Origin: Microgenomates group bacterium RIFCSPHIGHO2_01_FULL_45_11
GTDB taxonomy: Bacteria > Patescibacteriota > Microgenomatia > UBA1400 > 2-01-FULL-45-11
Reading direction: 5' to 3'
NCBI GenBank assembly: GCA_001803465.1
Contig: MHDE01000007.1
Span: 7,445-43,360 of the forward strand
Length of the DNA stretch: 35,916 nucleotides
In this document: piece by piece, positions 7,467 through 34,789 of the stretch
Numbering within the stretch: the stretch's first letter is position 1
How the letters are laid out: each line of letters begins with the position of its first letter
Program-made: the position numbers and the translations under genes
Notes under the pieces: model-generated
Told to the model about the DNA's origin: nothing
Databases searched by the model: none
What the model saw: only the letters and a program-made list of their open reading frames with translations

Positions 7467-7663
7467 GCGCCAGAGTGCTGAGTCCATTCGACGGGCCAGA
7501 ATCGAAAGCCCTGCCTCGTACCTTTTGTCGGAGTGGCTAAATCCTTCGGCCCTTCGACTACGCCACGTCTGACGTGGCTTCGCTCAGGGTAAACAGGTTC
7601 AGGACAAGTCGGTGGACCCACCATCGTATGCCGTAGTGGTGGGATTGATAGATAGCCCCGTAA
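7467..7663 (+). ncRNA. Candidate rod-shaped ncRNA (6S-like?) carrying a nested repeat insertion
   Basis: TATACT at 7455-7460. End-to-end pairings ACGGGC/GCCCCGT, ATCGA/TTGAT and CCTGCC/GGTGGG, plus a GACCCACC...GTGGG segment. Confidence 0.3.
7542..7608. repeat. Triple-nested REP-like hairpin elements
   Basis: TCCTTCG[GCCCTTCGACTACG(CCACGTCTGACGTGGCTTCG)CTCAGGGTAA]ACAGGTTCAGGACAAG. Related copies at 23076 and 34682. Confidence 0.7.
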
Positions 7664-7670
7664 CAATTTT

Positions 7671-7752
7671 GGGCTGGTGGCGAAACTGGTAGACGCGTAC
7701 GGCTTAGGACCGTATGGGGCAACCCTTGGAGGTTCGAGTCCTCTCCAGCCCA
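7671..7752 (+). tRNA. tRNA-Leu(TAG)
   Basis: GGGCTGG acceptor, TACGG CT-TAG-GA CCGTA, variable arm GGG-CAA-CCC, GGTTCGAGTCC, CCAGCCC-A. Confidence 0.95.
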
Positions 7753-7761
7753 CTAAAATTT

Positions 7762-7807
7762 GTACGGGGTACCGAAAGGTATAGAGGTTCAACTCCTCTG
7801 CCGCACA
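7762..7807 (+). pseudogene. tRNA remnant (class II/Leu-like) lacking the D and anticodon arms
   Basis: GTACGG..TACC-GAAA-GGTA-T-AGAGG-TTCAACT-CCTCT-GCCGCAC-A: imperfect acceptor stem, variable arm and intact T arm. Confidence 0.55.
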
Positions 7808-7837
7808 CTTTAAATTTGAAATTCTAAAGGGTAAACG

Positions 7838-8200
7838 ATGACAACAATAACTTTGAATCACTGGTTGAAACGGTTGGTGTTTATAGCGCTAATTTTATCT
7901 GGCCTCTACAGCCTATCTGAATCTGTCTGGCATTTTTTTGGTATTTATCCAAAATTACGGATCTTGGTGACGTTTGACGATTATATCCAACTGTTGCGCC
8001 AAGCCTTTCTCCTATCTTTAGCCGGATTGGCGGAATCAACTTATGGCCTGATAATGCTCCTTCGCCCAACCGCCACAGTTAAACGTAGTCAAGTTGCTAT
8101 CGGTCTATTGATTCTTTTGACGATAATCTATCTTAAAAGCCTGTGGCAACTGCCGCGGAGCTCATGGTTACCAGTGATGTTACGAAGGGCAGGGTTTTAA
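7838..8200 (+). CDS. Hypothetical membrane protein
   Basis: 120 aa with three hydrophobic segments. Confidence 0.55.
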   Translation: MTTITLNHWLKRLVFIALILSGLYSLSESVWHFFGIYPKLRILVTFDDYIQLLRQAFLLSLAGLAESTYGLIMLLRPTATVKRSQVAIGLLILLTIIYLKSLWQLPRSSWLPVMLRRAGF

Positions 8201-10019: not shown

Positions 10020-10093
10020 GGAGCCGTAGCTCAGTTGGTTAGAGCGTTGCATTGACATTGCAAAGGTCTGTGGTTCAAATCCACACGGCTCCA
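10020..10093 (+). tRNA. tRNA-Val(GAC)
   Basis: GGAGCCG acceptor, TTGCA TT-GAC-AT TGCAA, GGTTCAAATCC, CGGCTCC-A. TGTTATAAT lies just upstream. Confidence 0.95.
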
Positions 10094-10096
10094 CTG

Positions 10097-10135
10097 CCTG
10101 GTAAGGAACTTCCTTTAAAGGAAGTTCCTTTAAAG
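10097..10135. repeat. 15-bp-period palindromic repeat
   Basis: CCTGGTAAGGAACTT-CCTTTAAAGGAAGTT-CCTTTAAAG, with a perfect 28-bp palindrome at 10103-10130. Related array at 12407. Confidence 0.75.
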
Positions 10136-10150
10136 CTATTAGTTGGAAAT

Positions 10151-10825
10151 ATGATCGAGCCGAGAGTAATCGAAGTCACCGGCAAGTTTTTGGGAGGATT
10201 GGAAAAAGCCAGTGAGGTTTCGGCGTGGGCAAAGGATAATCTCAATCGGGTGGAGGAGTTCCGGCAAGGATATGATGAATTGATTGGGTTAATGAATGAC
10301 GTACCAGGAGACTCTCCGCTACTGGCAGTAATGCCGGAAACAGGGAAGCTAAAAAGGTTATTGGATAAACAAAAGCTGCCTTTAACCGAAGAAATGGCAG
10401 ATGGTAATTTTGCTTTGGCTCTGCTCGAGGCCAGAGGGCCGATGATCTATGGCCAAAAAATCAAACAGGGAGAAATAACTCAGCCGAGTGACGAAGATCG
10501 ACAATATGCGATTGGAACACCCTCAATGGCTACCTCAATTGAAGCTTTGGTGGTAGGGACAATGGGGCATCTTATCGAACGGACTTTTTTCCAATGGGCG
10601 AGAAAACATGGTTTTAACCCTGAAGGTGGTTGGAAGAAGGATGATTTCCTTCACGCTCTCATGGAAGTAACGTTATTTAGGCTGGCACAGGAGAAAAGCC
10701 TACTACTGATCGATTATTTCCTCCATTCCAATGCCGAAGGTGGCCTAGGTTGGTTAACTTTGGATAAAATAGACAAGTTTAACAACCAGTTGGTACAACT
10801 AGAATGGGGAAGTGCTACACCTTAA
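10151..10825 (+). CDS. Hypothetical protein
   Basis: Long ORF. Start moved to ATG 10151 because the longer call overlaps tRNA-Val. Confidence 0.65.
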   Translation: MIEPRVIEVTGKFLGGLEKASEVSAWAKDNLNRVEEFRQGYDELIGLMNDVPGDSPLLAVMPETGKLKRLLDKQKLPLTEEMADGNFALALLEARGPMIYGQKIKQGEITQPSDEDRQYAIGTPSMATSIEALVVGTMGHLIERTFFQWARKHGFNPEGGWKKDDFLHALMEVTLFRLAQEKSLLLIDYFLHSNAEGGLGWLTLDKIDKFNNQLVQLEWGSATP

Positions 10826-10830: not shown

Positions 10831-10936
10831 TATAATATCTAACTCTGGCTGGAACCAGAGCGATGTTACAAGCTTCGCTTATAATATCTAACTCTGGCTG
10901 GAACCAGAGCGATGTTACAAGCTTCGCTTATAATAT
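10831..10936. repeat. Exact 49-bp tandem duplication (about 2.2 copies)
   Basis: Unit TATAATATCTAACTCTGGCTGGAACCAGAGCGATGTTACAAGCTTCGCT starts at 10831 and 10880, with a partial copy at 10929. Confidence 0.9.
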
Positions 10937-12406: not shown

Positions 12407-12460
12407 CCTGGCAAGGAAGTTCCTTGCAAGGATGTTCCTTACAGGGATGGACCTGGTAAG
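12407..12460. repeat. 15-bp-period palindromic repeat (about 3.5 units)
   Basis: CCTGGCAAGGAAGTT-CCTTGCAAGGATGTT-CCTTACAGGGATGGA-CCTGGTAAG, immediately before the thrS ATG. Confidence 0.7.
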
Positions 12461-14862: not shown

Positions 14863-15057
14863 ATGCCGAAGGTTAAGACCAGAAAAATTGTGGCCAAGCG
14901 GTTTAAAATTACCAAGACCGGTAAAATTTTACGCCGGGCTCAGAATATGCGCCATTTGCGGCGGAGAAAGTCTAAGCGGCAAATTCGCGCTTACCGGGTG
15001 CCGAAGCAAGTAACGGGAAAAATGGCCAAAAAAATACGAACGATGTTGGGAAGGTAG
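14863..15057 (+). CDS. rpmI: 50S ribosomal protein L35
   Basis: MPKVKTRKIVAKRFKITKTGK; synteny with infC and rplT. Confidence 0.95.
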   Translation: MPKVKTRKIVAKRFKITKTGKILRRAQNMRHLRRRKSKRQIRAYRVPKQVTGKMAKKIRTMLGR

Positions 15058-15296
15058 TGAGCAATAAACGCCGTTTTAACCGTTTGTTTAACCAAACTGC
15101 CAGAGCTTTGAAAGCAGTCAGGGCGGCACAGGTTTTTGGCAGATTGAATCGGTTGATGCCTTATACCTTACCTGTCGATAATTTTTTTCGAAGGCATATT
15201 AATAAAATTAGACAAAAAGATTGGTTGAAAAGGAGTAAACCATGGCCAGAGTCAAAACCGGGCCCAGCCGGAGGCGACACCATAAAAAAGTCTTAG
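15057..15296 (+). CDS. Possible small basic protein between rpmI and rplT
   Basis: The GTG start overlaps the rpmI stop (TAGTG). Arg/Lys-rich. The last 55 nt overlap rplT. Confidence 0.35.
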
Positions 15297-15601
15297 CTAG
15301 AACGGCCGGCATGCGCATGTCGAAGGGCCGGCTGTATAAGGTAAGTCGGGAGGCAGACCTTCACGCTGGGCAGTATGCCTATATTGGTAGAAGACTGAGA
15401 AAACGCGATATGAGGAGGTTATGGATACTTAGAATTAATGCGGCTCTCAAAAGCTATAAGTTAGAGATAACCTATTCTCGTCTTATCCCGCTACTAAAAA
15501 AAGCAAAGATAGAACTGGACAGAAAAATTTTGGCAGAGTTGGCGGTAACTGATCCGGATACTTTCAAGGCTGTGGTTGACAAAGCAAAGGGCTCTCAATA
15601 A
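15242..15601 (+). CDS. rplT: 50S ribosomal protein L20
   Basis: [23 protein letters not shown] and [11 protein letters not shown] motifs. SD AAGGAG. Confidence 0.97.
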
Positions 15602-15602
15602 A

Positions 15603-15659
15603 ATGCAAGTAATGACTAGTTTAATCGCCTTCACCGCTTTCTTTTTTAGCCTCGGCTAA
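15603..15659 (+). CDS. Phe-rich leader peptide (PheM-like), MQVMTSLIAFTAFFFSLG
   Basis: Four Phe codons, three of them consecutive (15639-15647), between rplT and pheS. Alternative start at 15612. Confidence 0.8.
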   Translation: MQVMTSLIAFTAFFFSLG

Positions 15660-15711
15660 AGGGGAGCGGTCAGGTGGCGTTTTTGACAAGCTCCCCAAGG
15701 GGGCTTTTTTT
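15633..15711 (+). promoter_or_regulatory. Ribosome-mediated transcription attenuator of pheST
   Basis: 1:2 ACCGCTTTCTTT/AAAGGGGAGCGGT; 2:3 GGGGAGC/GCTCCCC; 3:4 terminator AAGCTCCC-CAA-GGGGGCTT plus T run. Confidence 0.8.
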
Positions 15712-15769
15712 ATTGGAAAAATTACTCACAATTGCCGCCAGCTTAAAACTTAAGTAGACTAGAAGAACG

Positions 15770-16792
15770 ATGCAAGAACAAATAAACAATCTTAAAAACG
15801 AAGCCATTGCGCTTATTACCCAGGCAGGTTCAGCCAACGAGCTCGAGGAATTGCGCCGGACGTATCTCGGGCGAAAAGGCAAAATTAATGAATTTGTCAA
15901 ACTCATGGCCGAAGCAACGGGTACAGAGCGGGCACAACTCGGCAAGTCAATTAACGAAACCAAGCAGGTTATCGTTCAAGCACTTACTGACCAGGCAGAA
16001 AATTACCGCCAGCAAACAGCGTGGCTGGATGTGACTCAGCCAGGGAAATTGCCACCGATGGGGCATTTGCATCCGATAACCCAAGCGATTGAGGAAATCA
16101 CCAGGATTTTTGAAGGGATTGGCTTTACGCGTGTCAGATACCCGGAAATTGATTACGACTGGTATGTCTTTACCGCGCTTAATATGCCGCCCAAGCACCC
16201 GGCGCGGGATGAATGGGAAACGTTCTTCATTGACGCCTCTTCCCATCCTAGTAAAGGCGAGTTGGTATTAACGACGCATACCAGTAACGGCCAAGTGCGA
16301 GAAATGGAACGGGTTAAGATACCTCCGATTAGAATGCTTAATATTGGTAAATGCTATAGGCGGCAACAGGATGTGACCCACACGGCTATGTTTCACCAAT
16401 TTGAAGGTTTGGTGATCGATTCGGGAATCACTATCCAACATTTGAAAGGGACGCTCAACTATTTCGCCAGGAAGTTTTACGGACCGCAAGCTAAATCTCG
16501 AATTAGGCCGTTTATGTTTAAGTTTACTGAACCAAGTTTTGAAGTTGATTTCTCCTGTGTCCACTGCAACGGTGAAGGCTGCAGATTTTGCAAGTCCGGT
16601 TGGCACGAAGTCGGTGGAGCCGGAATGGTACACCCTAATGTTTTGAAAGCGGGCGGGATTGACCCGGAAAAATATACAGGCTTTGCCTTTGGTTGGGGGG
16701 TGGAGCGGGTTTATACCCTAAAGCCAGGATTACACCTTGATGATATTAGACCTTTATATAGCACCAATTTGGAATTCCTTGAACAATTTTAA
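15770..16792 (+). CDS. pheS: Phenylalanine--tRNA ligase alpha subunit
   Basis: GHLHPI, HPARD, FHQFEGL, FTEPSFEVD and GFAFGWGVER motifs. Confidence 0.98.
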   Translation: MQEQINNLKNEAIALITQAGSANELEELRRTYLGRKGKINEFVKLMAEATGTERAQLGKSINETKQVIVQALTDQAENYRQQTAWLDVTQPGKLPPMGHLHPITQAIEEITRIFEGIGFTRVRYPEIDYDWYVFTALNMPPKHPARDEWETFFIDASSHPSKGELVLTTHTSNGQVREMERVKIPPIRMLNIGKCYRRQQDVTHTAMFHQFEGLVIDSGITIQHLKGTLNYFARKFYGPQAKSRIRPFMFKFTEPSFEVDFSCVHCNGEGCRFCKSGWHEVGGAGMVHPNVLKAGGIDPEKYTGFAFGWGVERVYTLKPGLHLDDIRPLYSTNLEFLEQF

Positions 16793-16805
16793 AAATTGAA
16801 AATTT

Positions 16806-18860: not shown

Positions 18861-18930
18861 AAGTAGCGACTCTTCCCGAGGTTGTCTCAAGTGTTAACCC
18901 CCGGGGTTGGAGGAGATAATGGGAAACAAC

Positions 18931-19170
18931 TTATATCACTTCTCCTGTGCTTAACAGGACCCTGATTTTTACTCCTGATCCAGTTTCTAATTCTACTATC
19001 GAGCGCCAAAAATCTAACTTTTCAACAATTCTATCAGCTTCGTCAGGAGGGATCTGATACCAGTCGGTTATTTCCTTAGCGGAAAGAAAGCTGTTCTTTA
19101 CAACATCTCTAGCAATAGCCGCAATAACTCGTTCGCTTAATCTTTCCATTCTCAACCTCGTCGGTGGCAA
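18931..19170 (-). CDS. Small hypothetical protein
   Basis: 79-aa ORF with an uncertain TTG start. Confidence 0.4.
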   Translation of the reverse strand: MPPTRLRMERLSERVIAAIARDVVKNSFLSAKEITDWYQIPPDEADRIVEKLDFWRSIVELETGSGVKIRVLLSTGEVI

Positions 19171-19289
19171 GACGCTGCCAGAGATTAATAAACTGCTGTC
19201 ACTTTAGACCAGTATCAATTCCGAGGTGACTACCTAACACCACCTCCGAAGTGGTGAGGAGGTCCGAGGTGTTGATAGGTGGTGACGAG

Positions 19290-19598: not shown

Positions 19599-19606
19599 AG
19601 TTGGTA

Positions 19607-22539: not shown

Positions 22540-22636
22540 GGTACTATTTTAACAGAGGAACGGTGAACGTTCCAGGGAAGGAAAGTTTCTAGAAAATTGT
22601 CTGAAAGCATTTAAATAATTTCTAAGGAAAATTTAT

Positions 22637-23071: not shown

Positions 23072-23075
23072 AAAT

Positions 23076-23141
23076 CCCTTCGACTGGTTCCCTCCTTCGT
23101 CCTTCGATTAACTCAGGACTACGGTGGGCAGACAGGGCAAG
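23076..23141. repeat. Nested REP-like hairpin elements
   Basis: CCCTTCGA[CTGGTTCCCTCCTTCGT(CCTTCGATTAACTCAGG)ACTACGGTGGGCAGA]CAGGGCAAG. Confidence 0.65.
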
Positions 23142-23279
23142 CATGAATTATGAATAAGGCAACAGTAAACAGAACAGCAAACAAAAAAGACTCTTGAAAC
23201 AGTTTCAGGCCTGATATAATCGAGGGGGGGAGATTATTGGAAGTGTCTAGGAAAGTGGGAAAACATATAATTGGGGACT

Positions 23280-24470: not shown

Positions 24471-24561
24471 GAGACAGCGGAAAATTTGGACGATAATTAT
24501 CTTTATCGCCGGCCTAGCGCTGGTGGCGACATCACTACTGCCTTTTTTCTTTGCTTCTTAA
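24457..24561 (+). CDS. Small membrane peptide (34 aa)
   Basis: MSLSKRQRKIWTIIIFIAGLALVATSLLPFFFAS*: basic N-terminus plus one TM segment, overlapping the tyrS end. Confidence 0.6.
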   Translation: MSLSKRQRKIWTIIIFIAGLALVATSLLPFFFAS

Positions 24562-24620
24562 CTGGCGGTATAAATATTTTTCTAACACCCTCTTGAAATT
24601 TTGCTTGTTATACTAGGGCT

Positions 24621-26678
24621 ATGGCTGCGATAACATCCAAGACGCCTGTGGAGAAACTGCCGATGGTGGGGCCGACCTTCGCCAAACGGTTGGCCAAGCT
24701 CGAGATACGTACGGTGGAGGATCTTATCTACCACGTTCCCCATCGATACCTTGATGTATCGATGGTAAGCCAGATTGGCCAAGTGCAAGCAGGGGAGACG
24801 GTAACTGTTACCGGCCAAGTGGTGGCGGCTAAGAATATCTTTACCAAGCGGGGAAAAAGAATTCAAGAGGTGACAATTAGCGACGGCACTGGCCAGCTGA
24901 CCGCCGTTTGGTTTAACCAACCATATTTGGTGACGACATTTAAAAAGGCTGGAAAAATTTCTCTGGCTGGGACGGTGGACCGGTTTGGAGCGAAACTATC
25001 GATGACGACGCCGGAGTACGAGATAATCACAAGAAACAAGAAACAAGAAACAAGAAACAAACTTGGGAGCATCCATACCGGTAGGTTGGTGCCTATCTAC
25101 CCGGAAACATATGGGGTGAGTTCCAAGTGGTTACGATCAAGAATTGCTCCGATTTTAATTGACGCTAACGTCCTAATTGCCGATTGGCTACCAGAACCGA
25201 TTCGGACGAGGGAAAAATTGTTGCCATTGCCTCAAGCATTAATTAGTATCCATTTTCCTGACAATGAGACAGCTATCGACACTGCTCGTAAACGGCTGGC
25301 GTTTGATGAATTATTCCTCTTACAACTGGCGTCACAAAAACGCAAGTGGCTGTGGCAAAAGGTAAAACTCTCTCATCCGTTAGCGGTCGATCAGGAAAAG
25401 GTCTCGCAACTTATCGCCGCCCTCCCCTTTAACCTGACTTTAGCCCAAAACCGAGTGGTGAAAGAAATTCTGTCTGATTTAGGCCGATCGCTACCCATGA
25501 ATCGTCTACTGCAAGGTGATGTGGGCTCGGGCAAAACCGTGGTGGCCGCCATCGCCATGTATGTGGCGTATCTTAATAACCTTAAGTCGGCTCTCTTGGC
25601 GCCTACCGAAATTTTAGCCCTGCAGCATGCACAGACGCTCAATACTATTTTGGAGCCGAAAGGATTGACACTGTCTACCCAGACTGGGAGTCGAAAAGAT
25701 AAACTGGAGAACGCTAATATCTTTATCGGCACTCATGCCTTACTCTACAGAGATATCCCTAAAGAATTAGGTTTACTGGTCGTTGACGAACAGCACCGGT
25801 TTGGGGTAGAACAGCGGGCTAAACTGCTTAAAGCTTCGAAAACGCCTCACCTTTTGACTATGACCGCTACGCCTATCCCCCGCACCATTGCCTTAACTAT
25901 CTATGGTGAGCTGGATCTGTCGCTTGTTGACGAGATGCCATCGGGAAGGAAAGCAGTGAAGACCTGGGTGGTACCTCAACTCAAACGTTTACGGGGCTAT
26001 GACTGGATTAGAAAACAAATTCAGGAAGATAAAGTGCAGGTGTTTATCGTTTGCCCGTTAATTGAAGAGTCGGAAAGCGAAGGCCTCACCCAAGTCAAGG
26101 CGGCGGAGGCGGAATTCAAACGTTTGTCAAAAGAAGTGTTTCCTGACTTACGACTAGGCCTATTGCACGGACGGATGCGGTCTAAGGAAAAAACGGCGGT
26201 GATAAGTGAATTTTTGCAGAAAAAATTAGATATTTTGGTCAGTACGCCGGTCATTGAAGTGGGGATTGATATTCCCAACGCTACCATAATGGTGATTGAA
26301 GGAGCGGAGCGATTCGGGTTGGCGCAACTCCACCAACTGCGGGGTCGGGTGGGCAGGGCAGAAAAACAAAGTTATTGTCTATTGTTTACCAGTAAGAATG
26401 GGGGAGCGACGCAGCGGCTAAAGGCGATGGAAAAAACTCAATCGGGATTTACCCTAGCGGAACTCGATCTAAAACTGCGCGGGCCGGGAGAACTGTATGG
26501 ACTCCGTCAACACGGCTATCTTCGACTCAAGGTGGCTAATTTTTCTGATCAAGCGCTAATGTCCAAAACTCATGATTATGCCCGGGAGCTTTGCTCTTAT
26601 GACCCTGACTTAAAAAAATACCCGGCCTTAGCTAAGAAACTAGACTTAATTTTGTCAGCCCAAATTGAGCCAAATTAG
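24621..26678 (+). CDS. recG: ATP-dependent DNA helicase RecG
   Basis: RLLQGDVGSGKT, DEQHRFGV, MTATPIPRT, QLHQLRGRVGR and DLKLRGPGE motifs. Confidence 0.97.
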   Translation: MAAITSKTPVEKLPMVGPTFAKRLAKLEIRTVEDLIYHVPHRYLDVSMVSQIGQVQAGETVTVTGQVVAAKNIFTKRGKRIQEVTISDGTGQLTAVWFNQPYLVTTFKKAGKISLAGTVDRFGAKLSMTTPEYEIITRNKKQETRNKLGSIHTGRLVPIYPETYGVSSKWLRSRIAPILIDANVLIADWLPEPIRTREKLLPLPQALISIHFPDNETAIDTARKRLAFDELFLLQLASQKRKWLWQKVKLSHPLAVDQEKVSQLIAALPFNLTLAQNRVVKEILSDLGRSLPMNRLLQGDVGSGKTVVAAIAMYVAYLNNLKSALLAPTEILALQHAQTLNTILEPKGLTLSTQTGSRKDKLENANIFIGTHALLYRDIPKELGLLVVDEQHRFGVEQRAKLLKASKTPHLLTMTATPIPRTIALTIYGELDLSLVDEMPSGRKAVKTWVVPQLKRLRGYDWIRKQIQEDKVQVFIVCPLIEESESEGLTQVKAAEAEFKRLSKEVFPDLRLGLLHGRMRSKEKTAVISEFLQKKLDILVSTPVIEVGIDIPNATIMVIEGAERFGLAQLHQLRGRVGRAEKQSYCLLFTSKNGGATQRLKAMEKTQSGFTLAELDLKLRGPGELYGLRQHGYLRLKVANFSDQALMSKTHDYARELCSYDPDLKKYPALAKKLDLILSAQIEPN
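25031..25058. repeat. (AAGAAAC)x4 heptamer tract inside recG
   Basis: Four exact copies, encoding the RNKKQETRN segment. Confidence 0.9.
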
Positions 26679-26738
26679 AAATGGTGATAAGCGGATTTTT
26701 CCTGGATGTGATACAATTAGTTACCTCAAGGAGAATTT

Positions 26739-26900
26739 ATGGGAGCGTTACCGAAACGAAAGATAAGTAGCCATCGACAAGGTAAGCGGCGAAGAGCAAT
26801 TTTTCTTCGGCCGGTAAACTTGACTACTTGTAAAAACTGCGGCAAGCCCAAACGACCACATCAGACCTGTGGCCATTGTGGTTTTTATCAGGCTACCTAG
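26739..26900 (+). CDS. rpmF: 50S ribosomal protein L32 (zinc-binding form)
   Basis: MGALPKRKISSHRQGKRR...CKNCG...HQTCGHCGFY. SD AAGGAG. Below the ORF track size cutoff. Confidence 0.95.
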   Translation: MGALPKRKISSHRQGKRRRAIFLRPVNLTTCKNCGKPKRPHQTCGHCGFYQAT

Positions 26901-26967
26901 TACTCCCAGCTTGGATGTTCATTAGTCTCCTGTTTCACGCGGGAAATGATGAGTATATACTAGCGGT

Positions 26968-27336
26968 ATGAAACAGGCGGCTGACCCCAGGCACCAGAAA
27001 CGGATTCGTCTGGTGAAAGATTTATTTGCTTATAGCTTTAGTCATGGTCTAAAACCAACATCAACGATTAAAACCCTATTAGAAAACCAAGAAGAAATTG
27101 ATAGGTACATTCAGGCAGCGGCCCCCGAATGGCCGCTAACTCAAATTAATCGGGTTGACTTGAGTATCTTAAGGCTGGCCGTGCATGAATTGCTGCTTCG
27201 AAAAGTTCCCCGAAAAGTGGTGATTGACGAGGCGGTAGAACTGGCTAAAGCTTTTGGTTCCGAAGCCTCGCCTAAATTCGTTAATGGGGTGTTGGGAACG
27301 GTGGTAGAAAGGTTGACCGTCACTACTTTTGGATAA
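26968..27336 (+). CDS. nusB: Transcription antitermination factor NusB
   Basis: [23 protein letters not shown] and FVNGVLG motifs. Confidence 0.95.
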
Positions 27337-27393
27337 GTTCCTACTAGGAGAAGGAACGAATTTGAAGTTAAATACTTAAATAGAACCAGCTGG

Positions 27394-27434
27394 GCTGTAT
27401 GTAACGTTAAGGATCAGTTATTATATCTTGTTAT
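27394..27434 (+). repeat. About 42-bp upstream repeat, copy 1
   Basis: GCTGTATGTAACGTTAAGGATCAGTTATTATATCTTGTTAT, ending in the acpP ATG. Confidence 0.8.
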
Positions 27435-27672
27435 GGATCAACAGCAAAAAAAGACTCTTTATCAGTTGATTGTCAATACTCTCGGGTGTAATCCCGGCCA
27501 ATTATCTCAAGGAACCGAATTTGGGGCGGATTTGAACGCCAGTCCTTTAGAAATGGAACGATTGGTAAGTTTGATTGAGCGCGAATTTGATATAGAATTA
27601 TCTGCCACTAAACCAGGTGAGTTGATGAATATTGGACAATTGGTCACTGACATCGAAGAGGCGATGTTGTAA
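27433..27672 (+). CDS. acpP: Acyl carrier protein-like (degenerate phosphopantetheine motif)
   Basis: 79 aa, acidic, DLNASPLE...IEREFDIE pattern, upstream of rnc. Confidence 0.75.
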   Translation: MDQQQKKTLYQLIVNTLGCNPGQLSQGTEFGADLNASPLEMERLVSLIEREFDIELSATKPGELMNIGQLVTDIEEAML

Positions 27673-27688
27673 CTGGAACCAGTCCAGG

Positions 27689-27782
27689 GCTGTGTGTAAT
27701 GTTAAGGAAGAAACTATTGTATCTTGTTATAAACAGCTACGCTGTATGTAACGTTAAGGAAGAAACTATTGTATCTTGTTAT
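27689..27782 (+). repeat. 42-bp upstream repeat, copies 2 and 3 (52-bp spacing)
   Basis: GCTGTRTGTAAYGTTAAGGAAGAAACTATTGTATCTTGTTAT at 27689 and 27741. The last copy ends in the rnc ATG. Confidence 0.85.
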
Positions 27783-28446
27783 GAAAGCTAGGGTGCCGGC
27801 TATCAACCAAAAACTCCTGACTATCGCTTTGACCCACCGGTCGTATCTTAACGAGCATAAAACCGTCAAAGAACACAACGAGCGTTTGGAGTTTTTGGGT
27901 GATGCAGTATTGGAACTAGTAACCAGTCAGTACATCTTTGAGAAATACCCGGATAAACCTGAAGGGGAAATGACGGCGCTAAGGTCGGCTTTGGTGCGCA
28001 CCACCACGTTGGCCGAAGTAGCTGAAAAACTTAAGTTAGGAGACCAATTACGTCTAAGCCGGGGTGAGGCGGCTTCCGGGGGAAGGGAAAATCGGGCACT
28101 TCTCGCTAACACTTTTGAAGCGGTACTCGGGGCGTTGTACCTGGATCAGGATCTAACCGCAGTCAGAGAATTTTTGACAACCTGGCTCTTTCCAGAACTG
28201 GCTACTATTGTTACTAAGGAGCTCTACCGGGATTATAAGAGCACCTTACAAGAAGAAGTCCAGGCTGAAGGACAACCATCACCGGTGTATGAAGTGGTGA
28301 GTGAAGTTGGACCCGACCATGATAAGCAATTTACGATCAGGGTGATGGTGGGGACCAGAGAGTTGGCTGCTGGTTCGGGTAAAAGCAAGCAGGCTGGCCA
28401 GCAAGAGGCCGCCCGAAGAGCGCTTGAGAAACTGGCGAAGGGTTGA
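27781..28446 (+). CDS. rnc: Ribonuclease III
   Basis: ALTHRSY, NERLEFLGDAVL and dsRBD (DYKSTLQE...GKSKQ). ATG 27781. Confidence 0.97.
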   Translation: MKARVPAINQKLLTIALTHRSYLNEHKTVKEHNERLEFLGDAVLELVTSQYIFEKYPDKPEGEMTALRSALVRTTTLAEVAEKLKLGDQLRLSRGEAASGGRENRALLANTFEAVLGALYLDQDLTAVREFLTTWLFPELATIVTKELYRDYKSTLQEEVQAEGQPSPVYEVVSEVGPDHDKQFTIRVMVGTRELAAGSGKSKQAGQQEAARRALEKLAKG

Positions 28447-28474
28447 TACAATCGGAGTTTACTGGTAAATCGTT

Positions 28475-28711
28475 ATGCTCAAAATTAAATTGTCTCGCAC
28501 TGGCAAACGAAATGAGCCGCACTATCGGATAGTCGTCGCCGAAGCCCGGTCTAAAAATCAGGGGCGGGTGGTAGCTGCTTTAGGCCATTACAATCCGCGG
28601 ACAAACCCGAGCACCTTGGTGATTGATAAAATTCAATATCAAAAGTGGCTAGCGGTAGGAGCACAACCGACAGCCAGTGTTCATAAATTAATAAGCAAGG
28701 CAACCTCATGA
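28475..28711 (+). CDS. rpsP: 30S ribosomal protein S16
   Basis: MLKIKLSRTGKRNEPHYRIVV...LGHYNP...GAQPT. Confidence 0.96.
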   Translation: MLKIKLSRTGKRNEPHYRIVVAEARSKNQGRVVAALGHYNPRTNPSTLVIDKIQYQKWLAVGAQPTASVHKLISKATS

Positions 28712-29091
28712 AAGACCTATTAACTTTAATTCTTACTAACATTACTACCCATCCGGACAAAGCCCAAGTTGACCAAACTCAAGAGGACGGAGTGGACGTT
28801 TACACTATTACTGTTGAGCCGGATGATATGGGTCGGGTAATTGGTAAGAGCGGTAAAGTAATTAGGGCCATCCGCACTTTGGTATATGTAGCCGGAATTC
28901 GGAGCGGAACCCGAGCCAGAGTCAAGCTTAATGCCGGAGAAGAGGTAGCCGGTCAAGAACCTTCGGCTTTGGGAGCTAGCGGGCAAACGTTAGAAGACGA
29001 GATTGACCTGAGTGAAGAATTGCCTCAAGAAAAACAGGAGGAGAAAGCTACCGAAGTCACTCCTCAAGAAACAGACGATACTAAGGAGTAG
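28708..29091 (+). CDS. khpA: KH-domain RNA-binding protein KhpA with an acidic tail
   Basis: DMGRVIGKSGKVIRAIRTL; directly after rpsP with an ATGA overlap. Confidence 0.88.
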   Translation: MKDLLTLILTNITTHPDKAQVDQTQEDGVDVYTITVEPDDMGRVIGKSGKVIRAIRTLVYVAGIRSGTRARVKLNAGEEVAGQEPSALGASGQTLEDEIDLSEELPQEKQEEKATEVTPQETDDTKE

Positions 29092-29120
29092 CGTCGAAGA
29101 TTTCGGGCTTGGCAGCCTGG

Positions 29121-29882
29121 TTAGAAGGAAAAGGGGTTGGGACGAGGCTCGGTGGCCGGAATGGCGCCAAAAGTAGCCACAAATTCAAGGTTTTCCAAAG
29201 TCGACATCATTGCCTGTTGGTTAGAGGTGATCTCGGGAAGGGGAGCATCGATAGCCGTTAAGTTGGCAGAAGGCAGGGAATAATAGGCGATTAGTTCGGC
29301 TTGAGCGCGGATAAGGTCGATGGGAGTTTCGGGATTAGCATTTCGGTTCAGGATTAAAGTTTTGGGCTGCAACAGCGGCCTAGTTTGGATAAGCAAGCCA
29401 AATAAGTTGAGCATTTGCGACTTGTCGCCGGTGACTCCAGCGGAAATATCCATCTCGGCTGTTTGACCGGGAACGGGAGCTTGACTAACCTGCTTCTGAG
29501 TGGCGCTGTCCGTGGCTAAGGGACCGGGAGAAAAAGAGATGTCGTTAATAAAAGCTTGGGCTTTCTGAGCTTGGGCTTGAATAGAGGCTAGGGTTAAGAA
29601 GACCGGTTTTTCCGAAGGCAAAACGGTTTCCAAAAAGGCCACCTGACTATTGAGGCTGTCAAGATTGAGGCCTTGAAGGAAGTCGACTTTAGCAGCAATC
29701 GCTGCCAATTTTTCCCTGGCAGTAATGATCTCTTGACGGTTACTCAAAATCGATTTTAGCTGGGGGATGGCTATAAAGGGAACGGAAATGATAATGGCCA
29801 GAACGATAAGTAAGGGTAATCCCCAGATTTTAAGCCAGGTTTTGGCTTCGTCGCGAGAGTAAGCGGGAAGTGGTTCAATCAT
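29121..29882 (-). CDS. PilO-like type IV pilus alignment protein
   Basis: N-terminal TM plus coiled coil, LPSEK motif, position after pilM and pilN. Confidence 0.65.
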   Translation of the reverse strand: MIEPLPAYSRDEAKTWLKIWGLPLLIVLAIIISVPFIAIPQLKSILSNRQEIITAREKLAAIAAKVDFLQGLNLDSLNSQVAFLETVLPSEKPVFLTLASIQAQAQKAQAFINDISFSPGPLATDSATQKQVSQAPVPGQTAEMDISAGVTGDKSQMLNLFGLLIQTRPLLQPKTLILNRNANPETPIDLIRAQAELIAYYSLPSANLTAIDAPLPEITSNQQAMMSTLENLEFVATFGAIPATEPRPNPFSF

Positions 29883-29885
29883 CGG

Positions 29886-30506
29886 TTAATTACCTTCCTT
29901 TTCATCTGAAACTGTCGTGGCCGGAGAGGGCGTCGGATTTGGTTGAGGAAAGGCTATTTCCTCCTTGGAAAGAGTGATGCGGGCGAGGTACTCGGCTGTC
30001 TCATTACGGCTGGTCGACTCGATAGCGATGGTTTTAAAAAGAGCTTTAAGAGGTGAAGTTTTTAGGGCTTCGACGAGGTTATAAAAGCGAAAAACGTCAG
30101 TGGCTATGGCGGACAGGTTAACAGAATTTTCATCCTTGAAAGTTAGGTTTTGCAACGTCACTCCCTCGGGCATGGTGTCGAAGGCAGCAGCAAGAATGGT
30201 TGGTACATCGGCCCGACTGGAAATGATTTGGTTAGCTAACTTGAGTTTGGTGTGTACTAAAAGGTATTTGACCTCGGTAGCGCTAAGGGATTGGAGGACT
30301 TGTTTCTCTTTGTTAATTTTTTGGTTCAACGAGGCCAGCTGGATGCTGACAAAAACACGGAAGGCCACTAGAGGAATTAGGATGCCCAGGTAGGTTAAGA
30401 TAATGACCGTACTGATCATGATAATTTTCCGGTGTGACTCCCGTTGGCGGGTGAGGCTGGCTTGACGGCGGGATAAAAGGTTGACTGAAAAAGAATCTTG
30501 AGGCAT
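29886..30506 (-). CDS. PilN-like protein
   Basis: N-terminal VNLL motif, TM segment, coiled coil, MPEGVTL. Confidence 0.72.
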   Translation of the reverse strand: MPQDSFSVNLLSRRQASLTRQRESHRKIIMISTVIILTYLGILIPLVAFRVFVSIQLASLNQKINKEKQVLQSLSATEVKYLLVHTKLKLANQIISSRADVPTILAAAFDTMPEGVTLQNLTFKDENSVNLSAIATDVFRFYNLVEALKTSPLKALFKTIAIESTSRNETAEYLARITLSKEEIAFPQPNPTPSPATTVSDEKEGN

Positions 30507-30507
30507 T

Positions 30508-31536
30508 TTACTCCACGGTTTTCATGGCTAAACCGGTAGCGATGGCAAAGGTAGCCACTTCCTGGGAAAAGGCGCTGCCGCTTCTGACTTCCATAGCTTC
30601 AAAGGGATTGCCGATAGCGACTTCGACTGAAAGGGAATTGGCCAGGAAGGCGACGATGCCAGGTAAATAAGCGCCGCCGCCGGTAACGATGACTGATTTC
30701 AGGTTGGTTTCTGGCCTTTCGGAGCGAAAATATTGAATGGTTTTTCTGACTTCGCCGACCAGGGAATTAAAAACGGGCAGAAGAGAATTTCTGACCTTGC
30801 CTTCTAACTGATTTTCCATTAAACCATAAGAGCGTTTGTATTCCTCGGCATGAGACGGATCCAGGCCTAAACTTTTTTCGACGGCTCTGGTTAAGGCCAA
30901 GCCGCCGGTGGGTACGGAGTGAGTGGTAACAATAAAACCGTCATCAATGATGACTAAGTCTGTCGAGAGAGCGCTGATATTGGTGATGACGGTGGCTCCA
31001 GATTGATTAGTTTTGGCGGAAAACACCCGGGAAAGGGCAATGAGGGAGGTTTCCAGGCCGGCCGGTTCGACGCCAACCCTCTCCATCAAGGTTACCAATT
31101 GGTTGACTCTACTTTTACTAGCGGCGGCCAAAAGCACGGTCATTTTTTCTTCGCCGCTGCCTTTGGGTGGGCGGCGCAAAACCGTGTATTCCAGGTTGAC
31201 TTCGTCCAAGGACACCGGAATATGCTGTTCGGCTTCCCATTGAATGGCCGAGGATAATTCGGCGTCGGTCAAAATGGGCATGGTAACGACGCTGGTAAAA
31301 GCTTCAGTTTCAGGTAAGGCTAAAAAGACGGGTTGGCCCAAAACTTTTTGCTCTGCCAAGAGTTTTTTGATGGTTTCGGCTAACTGGACGGTGCCGGCTT
31401 CCTCTTTGGGTAAGACTTGACCGACGGGGTTATAGGCGCTGCCTAAACTTCTAACGACAAACTTGCCTCCCTGGTGGTCGAGGCCAACAAGTTTGATGGC
31501 ATAGGAACCGATGTCTAGTCCGACGGTAACGGCCAT
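30508..31536 (-). CDS. pilM: Type IV pilus assembly protein PilM
   Basis: VGLDIGSYAIK, WEAEQHIP, VTGGGA, NPF and AIATGLAMK (actin-like fold). Confidence 0.92.
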   Translation of the reverse strand: MAVTVGLDIGSYAIKLVGLDHQGGKFVVRSLGSAYNPVGQVLPKEEAGTVQLAETIKKLLAEQKVLGQPVFLALPETEAFTSVVTMPILTDAELSSAIQWEAEQHIPVSLDEVNLEYTVLRRPPKGSGEEKMTVLLAAASKSRVNQLVTLMERVGVEPAGLETSLIALSRVFSAKTNQSGATVITNISALSTDLVIIDDGFIVTTHSVPTGGLALTRAVEKSLGLDPSHAEEYKRSYGLMENQLEGKVRNSLLPVFNSLVGEVRKTIQYFRSERPETNLKSVIVTGGGAYLPGIVAFLANSLSVEVAIGNPFEAMEVRSGSAFSQEVATFAIATGLAMKTVE

Positions 31537-31598
31537 AAAATGCTCCTCGTTAATTGGGTTGGGAATAGGCTGGGCAGGTTAGAGTTCATAGGTAAAGG

Positions 31599-32411
31599 CT
31601 ATTGAATGAGGCTGGAACCGGAAAAAACAACATAATCAAAAATTGAGGGAATAAAGGGGTTGGTGCGGGTAGTCAGAATGGCCCTGGTTTCTCCGGTTAG
31701 GGCCTTGGTGCCTTCGGATTCGATGTTATATTGTTGGGGAGGGAAGCTAGCTACCCAACCTCCTCGTGGAGTTATCCGAATGGGCATATCGGCATAGGTG
31801 GCTCGGATACGAAGAAGGACATCATTACTCGTAAAACCAGGGACAAGGCCAAACCCTAGTGCCAGCCTCCAAGCGCTACCGGGTGGGGCGATTACGAAAG
31901 TGTCGATAAAATTGTCTCCGGAGACACAGCCGGCACCTATAAAACCCCAGCGTCTGACCGTCGGGCCGGCCGCGTTGTAAATGGCCACCACAATCCCGCC
32001 GGCAGAGCAGCCAGCGGTTGGTTCTCCCCAATCAATCCAAAGGCCGTCGGTGCCGCTGACACCGCTGACATTAACGTCAATGGTGTGGCCTTGGGGGACG
32101 ATGACTTCTAAAATATCATCCTTCTCTATTTGGTAATCGTAGGTCAAGCTGTCGGGGACGCTAAAGGTATAGGGGGCGGGATTATAGACGTCGCCGATAT
32201 AGGGGAGATCGGGCAAGGGCGTAGCCAGACCCAAGGCACTTTCGATGCCGGCTTCGGCGGCATTAAAGACCCTGGTGGTTTCCTCTTCTTTTCTGGAAAC
32301 AGAAACGTCTTCGGTGGTTCTAGTGGCCACGGAAATGCCGATAGTTAAAATCACTGCCATAAACAATAAAATAATAAGGGCAATTTGGCCCCGATTTGAT
32401 TCTTTTACCAT
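31599..32411 (-). CDS. PilX-like minor pilin
   Basis: RG|QIALIILL leader without Glu5, FNAAEAGIE motif. Start ATG 32411. Confidence 0.78.
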   Translation of the reverse strand: MVKESNRGQIALIILLFMAVILTIGISVATRTTEDVSVSRKEEETTRVFNAAEAGIESALGLATPLPDLPYIGDVYNPAPYTFSVPDSLTYDYQIEKDDILEVIVPQGHTIDVNVSGVSGTDGLWIDWGEPTAGCSAGGIVVAIYNAAGPTVRRWGFIGAGCVSGDNFIDTFVIAPPGSAWRLALGFGLVPGFTSNDVLLRIRATYADMPIRITPRGGWVASFPPQQYNIESEGTKALTGETRAILTTRTNPFIPSIFDYVVFSGSSLIQ

Positions 32412-32468
32412 TACCTTTCCATTGTAGCCACTGACGCGGCTTGTAGTCAATGAGCTCTGAAAATGAAT

Positions 32469-32975
32469 TTAGTAAGTTCTTAATAAGGTGGTGGTGACAA
32501 AGGTTTCCCGGACTACATCTGACGGTCGGGCGCCAGTTTCGCCGCGCTGCAGGGTAAAGGTGATACCGACTTTGGGTGGGGTAAAAACGGTACCGGCGAT
32601 GCAGGTAAAAGATAAGTTGCTGGCGATAATATTACTGGCAGTCAAGTATAAACCGGCGTTGAGTTGAATCCGGTTCGGGGTAACACTAGTATCAATTTGG
32701 ATAGTGTAAGTAGTCGGTGGGGTAGTGTTTTTGACGATATCTAACTGGGTGGCGGGGGAGCCACCGACGCAGGTGACCGTATCGGCATTTCTAACTAAGC
32801 GCTCAATTTGGGCCAGGGCATAGTCGCCGCTACTTCTGACTTCATTTAGACGGGCGGCTTTGCTGCCGCCTTGGACGCTGGTTAAAAATAAATTGACCGT
32901 GGCTACGGCTAAAATAGCGGTTAAAGTAACCACTACTAAGACTTCGATGAGGGTATAACCGTAAACTAACTTCAT
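32469..32975 (-). CDS. Minor pilin (PilW/GspJ-like)
   Basis: G|YTLIEVLV N-methylation motif. The start overlaps the upstream stop (TGATG). Confidence 0.82.
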   Translation of the reverse strand: MKLVYGYTLIEVLVVVTLTAILAVATVNLFLTSVQGGSKAARLNEVRSSGDYALAQIERLVRNADTVTCVGGSPATQLDIVKNTTPPTTYTIQIDTSVTPNRIQLNAGLYLTASNIIASNLSFTCIAGTVFTPPKVGITFTLQRGETGARPSDVVRETFVTTTLLRTY

Positions 32976-33481
32976 CACAAAGGATTCCACTCCTCTAAAC
33001 TGCTGGTTAAACGTGACTGAAATTGCTGTGTGCCTTCCCACCACTCGACAGTGACGATTATGTCGACCGCTTCCGGGTCAGGGTTGGCGTCTTGGTTAAC
33101 CGGAGTGATGGTTAAGAAACGTTCAAAATTGGTACCAGGGATATATTGGCTGCCGGAGCAGACGCCGGCGGTAAAGGGGGAGAAAGAGGGACCATTAAGG
33201 TCTGGCAAAGTGGGAGTGCAATAGGTGGTCATGCCCACCGGTAACCAAGTGGTGAAGGCAAACCAGCCGACCCGGTCGCGTTGTTGACGAAACCATTCCA
33301 CTCCCTCCTGGGCATAGCGGGTGGATAGGGTTTGGTCGCTACTCTTGCGGCTGGCTTTGATGCTTAGCGATAAGGAATGGACGACGGCGACCAAGACCAC
33401 GGCGGTAATGGTGGCGGCAAAGATGACTTCGATTAAAGTTTGGCCTTTAGTGGTGGTTGGTTGCGGGCGGGTTTTATTCAT
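32975..33481 (-). CDS. Minor pilin (PilV-like)
   Basis: KG|QTLIEV motif and AQEGVEW. The start overlaps the upstream stop (TAATG). Confidence 0.8.
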   Translation of the reverse strand: MNKTRPQPTTTKGQTLIEVIFAATITAVVLVAVVHSLSLSIKASRKSSDQTLSTRYAQEGVEWFRQQRDRVGWFAFTTWLPVGMTTYCTPTLPDLNGPSFSPFTAGVCSGSQYIPGTNFERFLTITPVNQDANPDPEAVDIIVTVEWWEGTQQFQSRLTSSLEEWNPL

Positions 33482-34278
33482 TAGGGTAGTTGACAACGAC
33501 AATTGGTAAAATTAGTCGTATAGGGCACGCCACCGATAAAACAGTTTGGTTGAGCAATCATCTGCATCCCACAGTTACCTACGGGTATATCGAAACACAG
33601 AAATTGTGGTGAAGGACCGCGACCACGAACATTACTGTCGGTGCCATTAGGGTCGGTGCCGACACTGGCACAGGTGGCCCCGGGAATTGTAATACAAAGC
33701 TGATCACAGGTTTGGTTAGTAGCCCCATTGGCAATAACATTGTAAAAGGGAACGGAGACGACGGGGCCGATGGAGGCCAGGCGAACATATTCGGTGGTGC
33801 CGCCTTGGCCGACGACGGGGCCGCTGCCGTTATCGGGGATGCCGGTTAAGACTTCGAAATTGAAAGTTAAGGAGTTGGTAAAAAGGACGTTAGCTTTAAA
33901 GGCAGTAGAGGAAATTAATGGACCGGTCCCGACGCCAAGGCAGATGGCTTGAGCCTGGGCAGTATTGGTGCCGCTAGTGACAATCACCCGGTAACCGTCT
34001 AGTTGAGAGCAACCGGCGGGTTTGTCGCCGGCTGTAGCCCGTTTTTGGATGGTGCGCAAGAACTCGGTGGTTTCCTGGGCGGCGTTACGGACTTGTTGCT
34101 TCTCGTTAAAGCGGCTGTAGACTGCTAAACCACCGCCCAAAAGAATGCCGGTGACGGTAACAATAACCAGGATTTCAATTAAGGTAAAGCCCTTCCTAAC
34201 TAGGTTGGACAGGATAGCACCTAATTGAAGCTTTTTCCACTGGTTAGCTGGGTAGTTAGCACTGGGCAGAAACCACAT
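33481..34278 (-). CDS. FimT/GspH-like minor pilin with a Cys-rich C-terminal extension
   Basis: KG|FTLIEIL motif and a Cys-rich tail (TCDQLC...TNCRC). Confidence 0.8.
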   Translation of the reverse strand: MWFLPSANYPANQWKKLQLGAILSNLVRKGFTLIEILVIVTVTGILLGGGLAVYSRFNEKQQVRNAAQETTEFLRTIQKRATAGDKPAGCSQLDGYRVIVTSGTNTAQAQAICLGVGTGPLISSTAFKANVLFTNSLTFNFEVLTGIPDNGSGPVVGQGGTTEYVRLASIGPVVSVPFYNVIANGATNQTCDQLCITIPGATCASVGTDPNGTDSNVRGRGPSPQFLCFDIPVGNCGMQMIAQPNCFIGGVPYTTNFTNCRCQLP

Positions 34279-34285
34279 ACGTTGT

Positions 34286-34789
34286 TCACGGCTCGCCTAA
34301 ACAAACTCTCGTGCCAGGACCAGCCAGAGTAGCGGGAAGGTAACTAATGCCATATTCTCTACCTGCTGTCGTACAGGTACCGGCAGCACAGCCGGAAGCG
34401 GGACAGCCGTAGGTGTACACATAAGTACCGCCGACTGGGTCTTGGACACTATTGGTAAGATAGGTAGCGCCTACTGCAGTTTGCATATTGCCACTGACGC
34501 TGACGTTGGGATAAGTACCGTTGTCAGAACGATAAATTTCCAGGGCGGTTCTGACTTGTTGGATGTCGGCTTCACGACGGGCGTTTTGGGCGCGAATGCG
34601 GGTGGTACGGTAACTAACGGTAGCAATAGCCAAAAGGACGCCAATCATGGCCATGACAATGAGCATTTCAATGAGGGTAAAGCCCTTCGATAAGCTGCCT
34701 CCTTCGCCGAGACTACGAAAGGCAGGCAGGGTAACCCTACGAGACAGAGAGAATGGGAGGGTTGAGGATTTTAATGAGGAAAGTTTCAT
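34286..34789 (-). CDS. Type IV pilin (GspG-like)
   Basis: KG|FTLIEMLIV, ARREADI...ALEIYRSDNGTYP. Confidence 0.88.
   Translation of the reverse strand: MKLSSLKSSTLPFSLSRRVTLPAFRSLGEGGSLSKGFTLIEMLIVMAMIGVLLAIATVSYRTTRIRAQNARREADIQQVRTALEIYRSDNGTYPNVSVSGNMQTAVGATYLTNSVQDPVGGTYVYTYGCPASGCAAGTCTTAGREYGISYLPATLAGPGTRVCLGEP
34682..34736. repeat. Nested REP-like element inside the pilin leader-coding region
   Basis: GCCCTTCGATAAGCT[GCCTCCTTCGCCGAGACTACGAAAGGCAGG]CAGGGTAACC; the inner insert is 30 nt. Confidence 0.7.

Follow-up and report, generated by a model that had tools for sequence, protein, structure and literature searches.

A window of 35,916 nucleotides (nt) from Microgenomates group bacterium RIFCSPHIGHO2_01_FULL_45_11 carries short hairpin-forming sequences that lie one inside another. 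The window is the whole stretch of DNA that was analysed, contig C7:7445-43360 of the source genome G000, which comprises 1,083,413 bases in 38 contigs and is 94% complete. We find that the hairpins are copies of one kind of unit, a weak hairpin of about 24 nt with a short covarying stem, a conserved loop and a short tail. Comparisons with related genomes show, at the level of aligned sequence, that the units are insertions, and the copies probably belong to a superfamily of non-autonomous insertion elements that are very small, about 24 nt, and mobilised in trans. A preliminary description of the window had proposed non-autonomous elements of 20-30 nt that use one another's hairpin loops as targets and survive at sites that tolerate them, and this proposal is borne out in its main points. 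Elements of this kind have already been published for cyanobacteria; of wider interest are the sharing of a 24-nt unit across phyla and its abundance in genomes without a recognisable mobilising enzyme.

The units occur far more often than in simulated or reversed genomes. The frame CCCTTCG.{3,70}CAGGG[TC]AA is found three times in the window, against a mean of 0.02 (maximum 1) in 200 first-order Markov simulations. Over the whole of G000 it is found 23 times, against a mean of 0.2 (maximum 2) in 20 simulations and a single hit in the reversed genome, and the strict unit pattern CCTTCG-N5-6-CTCAGG yields 25 hits against 0.1 simulated and none reversed. The second commonest 12-mer of G000 is GCTCAGGGTAAA (8+5 copies). 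The looser pattern first put forward for a genome search, CCTTCG-N3-60-CAGG, is weakly enriched (139 in the genome, simulated mean 101, maximum 116; 13 in the window, mean 3.4, maximum 9) and makes a poor test.

Simple copies, here called A type, read for example CCCTTCGATAACGCTCAGGGTAAAC or CCCTTCGACCAGCTCAGGGTAAAC. The loop is TTCG-N5-6-CTCA, the tail a sequence such as TAAAC or CAAGC, and the stem of 3-4 bp defines the subfamily by its sequence; the C type follows the same plan with a 6-bp stem and with CTAC replacing CTCA. Pairing was assessed by searching for the anchor TTCG-N5-6-CTCA alone and then counting Watson-Crick pairs directly outside it. Three flanking pairs are present at 32 of the 97 anchored hits in G000, where 1.5 are expected; a shift by one base leaves 2, and of 72 hits in the reversed genome none is paired in this way. 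G000 has seven stem types (CCC/GGG 20, TCC/GGA 5, TAA/TTA 2, TGG/CCA 2, TAG/CTA, GTT/AAC and CTC/GAG). Likewise, 16 of 26 anchored hits at loci from other phyla are paired, and TTC/GAA and CAC/GTG stems occur there too. Given that the paired flanks vary in stem sequence around a fixed loop, the unit is a short hairpin with a covarying stem.

Other identities of the hairpin were considered. In the window only four tRNAs reach the Rfam gathering score, with no match to the element, and among 20 element-bearing loci searched at E<=1 no match falls on the units. A DNA uptake sequence is ruled out, as the units are inserted blocks and not the product of point-mutation drift. The halves resemble a T-loop and a D-loop, yet their order and stems are unlike a tRNA arm, which speaks against a tRNA-derived origin. 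Some copies do adjoin tRNA genes. At three loci from other phyla (L004, L008 and L115) A-type units stand beside tRNA genes or duplicated tRNA 3' ends; these duplicated ends resemble island attachment sites, and within the duplication the unit takes the place of the T-loop portion.

Sites that are empty or differently filled in relatives, as the preliminary description had called for, are found in a loop of isoleucyl-tRNA synthetase (IleRS), in a loop of TsaD and in the spacer between dtd and tyrS. The IleRS gene of G000 reads AAGTCAAAAGTCAAAGGT, then the 24-nt unit CCCTTCGGTAATACTCAGGGTAAT, then AAAAAGTTAAAAGTT, translated KGPFGNTQGNKKLKV, with the unit inside an in-frame heptamer array. In G028, whose IleRS is 75% identical over a 300-residue query stretch, nothing interrupts the heptamer array at this position. 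The corresponding loop of G017 contains a unit in reverse orientation, and that of G012 contains other hairpins. TsaD of G000 contains an extra EPFDNAQGK in a variable loop. In its homologues from G017, G028, G036 and G005, all of them copy-rich genomes, the insertions are different ones and stand in different loops from that of G000; most of the remaining aligned relatives have none. In the dtd-tyrS spacer, where synteny is kept, neither G006, with a spacer of about 88 nt, nor G036, with one of 43 nt, has the unit; the spacer of G005 contains another member of the family, of the GTCATCCTGAGCGAAGCGAAGGATC type.

The heptamer arrays also reveal the size of the inserted block. Six copies that interrupt such arrays are testable, and in five of them, spanning three heptamers (CCATTCC, TGTCAAC and TTTTGAC), the 7-nt phase returns, with 0-1 mismatches, once exactly 24 nt are taken out; in the sixth, that of IleRS, the phase is restored by removing 31 nt, that is 24+7. 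Thus, the travelling block is 24 nt long, with no detectable duplication. Proximity to arrays is common: a period-7 array is found no more than 25 nt away at 7 of 30 G000 loci, whereas these arrays make up only 0.85% of the genome, and cyanobacterial loci sit in CCATTCC, TGTCAAC and TTTTGAC arrays. Heptamer arrays are themselves translated in two essential genes of G000, AAAAGTC units in IleRS (C20:17561-20560), which give KSKVK, and AATGAGA units in TsaD (C16:2585-3685).

The whole unit thus inserts without a detectable target duplication, and its preferred targets are hairpin loops of its own or another subfamily, heptamer tandem arrays, intergenic spacers and protein surface loops or leader peptides. 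Repeated insertion into loops produces onion-like nesting. Because 24 nt keep the reading frame and four of the unit's six frames are open, copies survive within genes as eight-residue insertions. Movement in trans would depend on an activity that recognises the folded single strand.

Every nested insertion that could be parsed falls between the 5' TTCG and the 3' CTCAGG or CAGGG of the host copy, hence in its loop, as had been surmised. The idea that junctions lie at a fixed TTCG/TACG does not hold; they occupy loop positions that vary by a few bases. Nested layers occur in both orientations. One nest in G000 (C16:10720) has four layers with an inner unit of 24 nt, and one locus in the cyanobacterial genome G442 has at least five, each a complete variant unit. 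Of 20 G442 loci that were read, most are hosted by another copy of the family or by a larger inverted repeat, in whose central loop they lie. Could such layers instead have grown on the spot, through template switching or slippage at a hairpin? The onion-like arrays have as many left as right halves, the halves at some loci are unequal (C18:13663 in G000, for example), and the innermost palindrome of one window locus (7563-7577) is unique, all of which would suit local growth. It does not account for the recurrence of one 24-mer at dozens of unlinked loci and within heptamer arrays of differing sequence (the three named above), for layers that are different complete variants, some of them reverse-oriented, or for mixed-subfamily nests such as 23076-23142, whose layers are not derivable from their immediate neighbours. 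We therefore give local growth almost no credence, and read the layers as successive insertions.

The unit is widespread. Related genomes were sampled at the level of the order (41 genomes) and of the phylum (401 genomes), with the backwards pattern as control. The strict unit is present in 25 of the 41 genomes (265 hits against 4 for the control), at 0-63 units per genome, and is patchy: G001, the sole genome of the same family, has 0 where G000 has 25. In the phylum sample it is present in 201 of the 401 genomes, with 1456 hits against about 43 control hits by our own count. Relatives of G000 have genomes of 0.8-1.3 Mb, and its phylum-mates 0.4-2.1 Mb. A scan across phyla, with one genome per species and the pattern CCCTTCG-N5-8-GCTCAGGGTAAAC, gave at least 123 loci. 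The hosts among the matches listed are Cyanobacteria, Terriglobia/Acidobacteriota, Chloroflexota, Bacteroidota isolates (Maribacter, Chryseobacterium and Flavivirga), Omnitrophota, Planctomycetota, Nitrospirota, Zixibacteria, several proteobacterial metagenome-assembled genomes and many Patescibacteria; several of the Patescibacteria records among these matches have the unit in frame in housekeeping genes, read PFDxAQGK. In genomes identified by way of these loci, counts over the whole genome are 155 in a member of Terriglobia, 229 and 228 in two cyanobacteria, 49 in Dehalococcoidia, 23 in Chryseobacterium and 9 in Maribacter, with 0-1 for the controls. Copies are nearly identical within the cyanobacterial genomes and within G350 (closed, 984 kb), suggesting recent amplification there. 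The loop centres of the G000 copies differ, so that these look old.

In its described features, the closest known system is that of the small dispersed repeats, SDR1 to SDR8, which are known from Nostoc punctiforme and its relatives. Elhai, Kato, Cousins, Lindblad and Costa reportedly described them in 2008 (Genome Res 18:1484) as repeats of 21-27 nt that are nested within themselves, in heptamer repeats and in mini-transposons, and whose families are said to keep a shared fold by compensatory changes. To our knowledge no transposase has been assigned to SDRs. The present unit, at 24 nt, falls within their size range. It nests in itself (at the window loci, at C16:10720 and in G442), it is embedded in heptamer arrays and in the loops of larger inverted-repeat mini-elements (in G000, the cyanobacteria and G442), and its subfamilies have a common fold with different stems, as the seven stem types and the 32 paired hits of 97, against 1.5 expected, indicate. 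In accordance, the sampled cyanobacterial genomes, with their 228-229 near-identical copies, exhibit exactly SDR-like habits. The existence and gist of the SDR description are confirmed by PMC5861425 and PMC3733652, and the former reports no SDR-like repeat outside Nostocaceae among HIP1-rich cyanobacteria. In contrast to such confinement, the unit occurs in many phyla and in half of the genomes of the phylum sample. This wider host range bears on the published distribution of SDRs, not on the nature of the element. Here, moreover, units lie in frame within essential genes. Literature searches with the 13-mer GCTCAGGGTAAAC and its reverse complement returned no occurrence, likewise those with six short peptides encoded by units, and searches on small dispersed repeats and on heptamer or short tandemly repeated repetitive (STRR) sequences gave nothing further on this element.

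What moves the units? No transposase had been seen in the window, and indeed none is present among the 40 open reading frames (ORFs) scanned there. Elsewhere in G000 a single gene on contig C32 matches PF01797 (29 bits; HxH and YIHTNP motifs), the Y1 transposase family that includes the transposases associated with repetitive extragenic palindromes (REPs), known as RAYTs; in NCBIfam this RAYT-like gene matches REP_Tyr_transpos best, with 46 bits where the cut-off is 80. G000, at 94% completeness, has no match to RVT_1 and none to TnpB (PF07282).

REP elements and their RAYT transposases were reportedly treated by Nunvar in 2010. If the present hairpins were REPs, the single Y1 (HUH) transposase of the genome would move them on single-stranded DNA. 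Like REPs and the related REPINs, they are short imperfect palindromes, dispersed, mostly intergenic and without the target duplication that Y1 transposition also lacks, and G000 does contain a RAYT-like gene. A search for a protein family that co-occurs with the repeats, as had been suggested, links PF01797 to them weakly in the order sample, where 18 of 20 genomes with at least four units have a match against 13 of 21 with three or fewer (our own cross-tabulation). The link breaks down in copy-rich genomes: G413 (86 units), G350 (53; closed 984-kb contig), G045 (49; closed chromosome) and G031 (13) have no PF01797 match, and G020 and G022, with nine and seven matches, have 0 units. Nor do the copies have a conserved GTAG/CGTC head or a conserved 4-5 nt target beside them, their flanks not being conserved, and the unit sequence is shared across phyla, whereas REPs are as a rule species-specific. 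Finally, the only Y1 gene of G000, beside uvrB, is bracketed on both sides by a different palindrome, AAGGACCATCCTT..AAGGATGGTCCTT, which has its own small family. We consider a REP/RAYT origin of the units improbable. REP/REPIN elements with RAYT transposases are described in Bertels and Rainey 2011 (PMC3116915) and Di Nocera 2013 (PMC3733652).

The second palindrome family, (G)TAAGGA-N-C-N-TCCTT..AAGGA..TCCTT, is unrelated to the units. Its copies lie at 10101-10130 and 12413-12442 of the window and elsewhere in G000 at C32:20386-20410, C32:21126-21152, C21:1521, C21:3362 and C5:53520, and together with the Y1 gene it gives this ultra-small genome what looks like a REP/RAYT pair of the classical sort.

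Elhai et al. reportedly favoured in 2008 an RNA-intermediate route for SDRs, by which units would be transcribed and reinserted by a reverse transcriptase. A hairpin with compensatory stem changes would fit recognition as RNA, and G273, with 87 units, has one RVT_1 gene. This is the only one of five copy-rich genomes to have it (G413, G353, G350 and G017 have no match), G000 has none, and its units are without orientation bias relative to transcription. We regard retro-mobility as very unlikely. Genomes with neither a Y1 transposase nor a reverse transcriptase reach 53-86 copies.

Other known elements differ in their defining features. Rickettsia palindromic elements, reportedly described by Ogata et al. 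in 2000 as about 100-150 bp long and restricted to Rickettsia, are likewise selfish palindromic repeats that lie in frame in the genes of a reduced genome and are translated; the present unit, with its 24 nt, its self-nesting and its spread over a whole phylum, is not a member. Miniature inverted-repeat transposable elements (MITEs) and the palindrome-associated transposable elements (PATEs) derived from IS200/IS605 are non-autonomous, hairpin-forming and presumably mobilised in trans, as the unit would be. Unlike MITEs, whose size is given as 70-300 bp in PMC3733652, a 24-nt unit lacks terminal inverted repeats of the length that a DDE transposase needs, and it leaves no target duplication. 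Unlike IS200/IS605-type miniature elements, it has no fixed 4-5 nt 5' target, the left flanks being different among 20 G442 copies and among the G000 copies. An intrinsic terminator is rejected in view of the 3-4 bp stem, the absence of a T run (U-tract in RNA) and the random orientation in G000. REP/RAYT, MITE, IS200-type miniature element, terminator and Rfam family thus each fail at least one defining feature.

The lack of a fixed flanking target, the absence of duplication and the targeting of loops together suggest that the units are moved by an activity that recognises a folded single strand and not a sequence. A Y1 (IS200/RAYT) transposase or a reverse transcriptase encoded in the same genome is probably not the mobiliser. 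The activity may belong to an enzyme that has escaped recognition, or else to the general machinery that processes and repairs hairpins.

The position of units in genomes bears on whether they act in cis. The preliminary description held that copies survive at neutral sites; as judged with gene proxies, 20 of the 32 paired units in G000 fall in non-coding DNA, which accounts for 14% of the genome, in agreement with tolerated sites, but the term must be widened to protein-coding loops where the element is translated, since the other 12 lie within genes, all open in frame, 7 sense and 5 antisense. Units between co-directional genes are oriented 7 versus 6. Given these near-equal counts, orientation in G000 is not linked to transcription. 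On the contig with the dnaA-dnaN origin (C16:1-20000; L125), five A-type copies all lie on the same strand. In G350 unit orientation flips near dnaA, but the flip coincides with gene direction, and in G045 there is no flip at dnaA.

A question remains, are the units functional cis-elements, hairpins for processing, stability, termination or protein binding, that recur through selection and gene conversion without transposition? Conservation of the loop across phyla would fit such a role. So would G350, where two 18-kb regions (C1:104000-122000 and 770000-788000; L245 and L246) hold 24 near-identical units with ATCC/GGAT stems, all 24 intergenic and 22 of them antisense to the flanking genes; each is preceded by a conserved stretch of the ATCATTAGAACTTTGAATATT type, and some lie in 52- or 68-nt tandem arrays. 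The longer conserved module thus formed may have a regulatory role, or it may represent a larger element that carries the units. The random orientation in G000, the 12 of 32 units that are inside genes and translated, the stems of just 3-4 bp with no U-tract, the lack of an Rfam match at the loci searched and the precise interruption of heptamer arrays and of other units make a general cis-acting role improbable as an explanation of the whole family. In some lineages, however, the units may act in cis or belong to a larger carrier element.

The G350 pattern is one of several points that weigh against reading the units as mobile insertion elements. The copies in G000 are heterogeneous, and present-day activity is unsupported there. 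Two of four window loci fold like shuffled sequence (z -0.02 and -0.21, plus strand), in line with weak hairpins. Some composites recur as units, the C>B composite three to four times in G000 and a GTCATTCTGAG[A-type]TCCGCGAAGAATC composite in one Terriglobia genome, so that the layers are not all independent and nesting overstates the number of events. The empty sites come from genomes of other families, with flanking proteins 41-75% identical, and no empty alleles were found at close range for the window's own loci. As far as assembled contigs go, none from four other runs aligned to window positions 15000-34999 skips a unit, and those of X5 cover 22099-23508 and 33806-34999 with 0 differences. 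The word mobile itself rests on comparative patterns. These points notwithstanding, we hold insertion and mobilisation in trans to be probable.

The features of the window are collected in the table. All three main loci said to share an outer frame are present; the start given for the second (23076) is exact, and those of the first and third lie one base further on, at 7550 and 34683.

Table. Hairpin units and the pilin gene in the window (window coordinates; a point marks a feature without strand)
Feature	Position	Strand	Basis
Outer TCC/GGA-stem layer, 5' half TCCTTCGG, enclosing an A-type copy	7542..7549	+	window sequence
A-type element, CCCTTCGACTACG (insert) CTTCGCTCAGGGTAAAC, 77 nt upstream of tRNA-Leu	7550..7594	+	window sequence
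Perfect palindrome CCACGTC-T-GACGTGG, CCACGTCTGACGTGG, in the A-type loop	7563..7577	.	window sequence
Outer TCC/GGA-type layer, 3' half AGGTTCAGGAC	7595..7605	+	window sequence
Three-layer composite, beginning 5 nt past the dtd stop codon	23076..23142	+	window sequence
Two-layer composite, antisense within the pilin gene	34683..34735	+	window sequence and translation
Possible degenerate member, CCCT + 8-bp AT hairpin + TCAGGGTAAAC	1752..1785	+	3' half matches the family
Type IV pilin-like gene, leader peptide hosting the composite	34286..34789	-	N_methyl motif at residues 34-56

At the first locus the three layers that had been described do exist, and the A-type copy includes the exact 13-mer GCTCAGGGTAAAC. 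The palindrome in its loop is found at this single locus in the whole of G000 and is therefore itself no repeated element, contrary to its inclusion in the family. The TCC/GGA stem class has five occurrences in the genome; as the outer layer here it is the least certain of the layers, its 3' partner reading TTCAGGAC instead of CTCAGGAC.

The composite after dtd consists of A-type halves (23076-23089 and 23133-23142) around C-type arms (23090-23099 and 23119-23132; CCCTCCTTCG ... CTACGGTGGGCAGA), which enclose an innermost unit, TCCTTCGATTAACTCAGGA, at 23100-23118, in agreement with the interruption first placed near 23101. In the pilin gene, A-type halves (34683-34697 and 34727-34735) surround the C-type copy CCTCCTTCGCCGAGACTACGAAAGGCAGG (34698-34726). 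The second element said to be common to these two loci is a real family: its sequence CCTCCTTCG occurs 20 times in the genome, and 14 of these 20 C-type copies were judged by reading to have a matching CTACGG..GGG 3' arm.

Two lesser loci had been added to the family. That at 1752-1785 is a possible member: its 3' half, TCAGGGTAAAC, is common to the family, but the CCC of its 5' side (1752-1754) is the 5' end of tRNA-Lys (minus strand, 1682-1754), which the hairpin abuts. The locus folds with z = -3.2 and -3.6 against shuffles. A small stand-alone GIY-YIG nuclease gene (1806-2114, minus strand) stands beside this hairpin, between tRNA-Lys and tRNA-Arg. The fragment at 4131 has to be dropped, since TGTCCTGAG occurs three times in the genome, the level of chance; it adjoins a different repeat (D19).

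Some further repeats in the window are outside the family. A terminator-like hairpin, CCACCCGACGGGTGG, with conserved flanks has two copies (2295-2318 and 4104-4127) near the ends of two ORFs, 2348-3622 on the minus strand and 3691-4083 on the plus strand. Just past the ORF 10052-10825 lies a perfect 49-nt tandem duplication (10831-10928), and a block of about 33-52 nt is present in three copies, 88-93% identical (27381-27413, 27676-27708 and 27728-27785), just upstream of the RNase III gene (27769-28446).

The pilin gene, with AGGA six bases ahead of its ATG, translates the composite as VTLPAFRSLGEGGSLSKG within an unusually long leader of 35 residues preceding the G of GFTLIE. A homologue that is 85% identical (P0003) has the same leader, and in all eight more distant homologues aligned the leader is shorter, P0019 being nearest in length. 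The homologues carry names from Levyibacteriota and Paceibacterota.

These units may be the smallest mobile DNA known, and the question of how such repeats move dates from 2008. The same 24-nt design is abundant well outside cyanobacteria, in half of a sampled phylum with genomes of about 1 Mb and in culturable Bacteroidota. That 53-86 copies are present in genomes without a Y1 transposase or a reverse transcriptase narrows the search for the mobilising activity, and small closed genomes such as G350 offer tractable models for it. It is conceivable, although we think it doubtful, that there is one pan-bacterial superfamily of SDR type, moved by conserved replication or repair machinery of the host at the apex of folded single strands, with no dedicated transposase or reverse transcriptase, and that in bacteria of the candidate phyla radiation (CPR) type it would be a steady source of in-frame eight-residue insertions in essential proteins, as in IleRS, TsaD and pilins. 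For annotation the units carry a warning, as spurious ORFs and "variable loops" can stem from them. The element also accounts for part of the unusual short insertions by which essential proteins differ in ultra-small bacteria.

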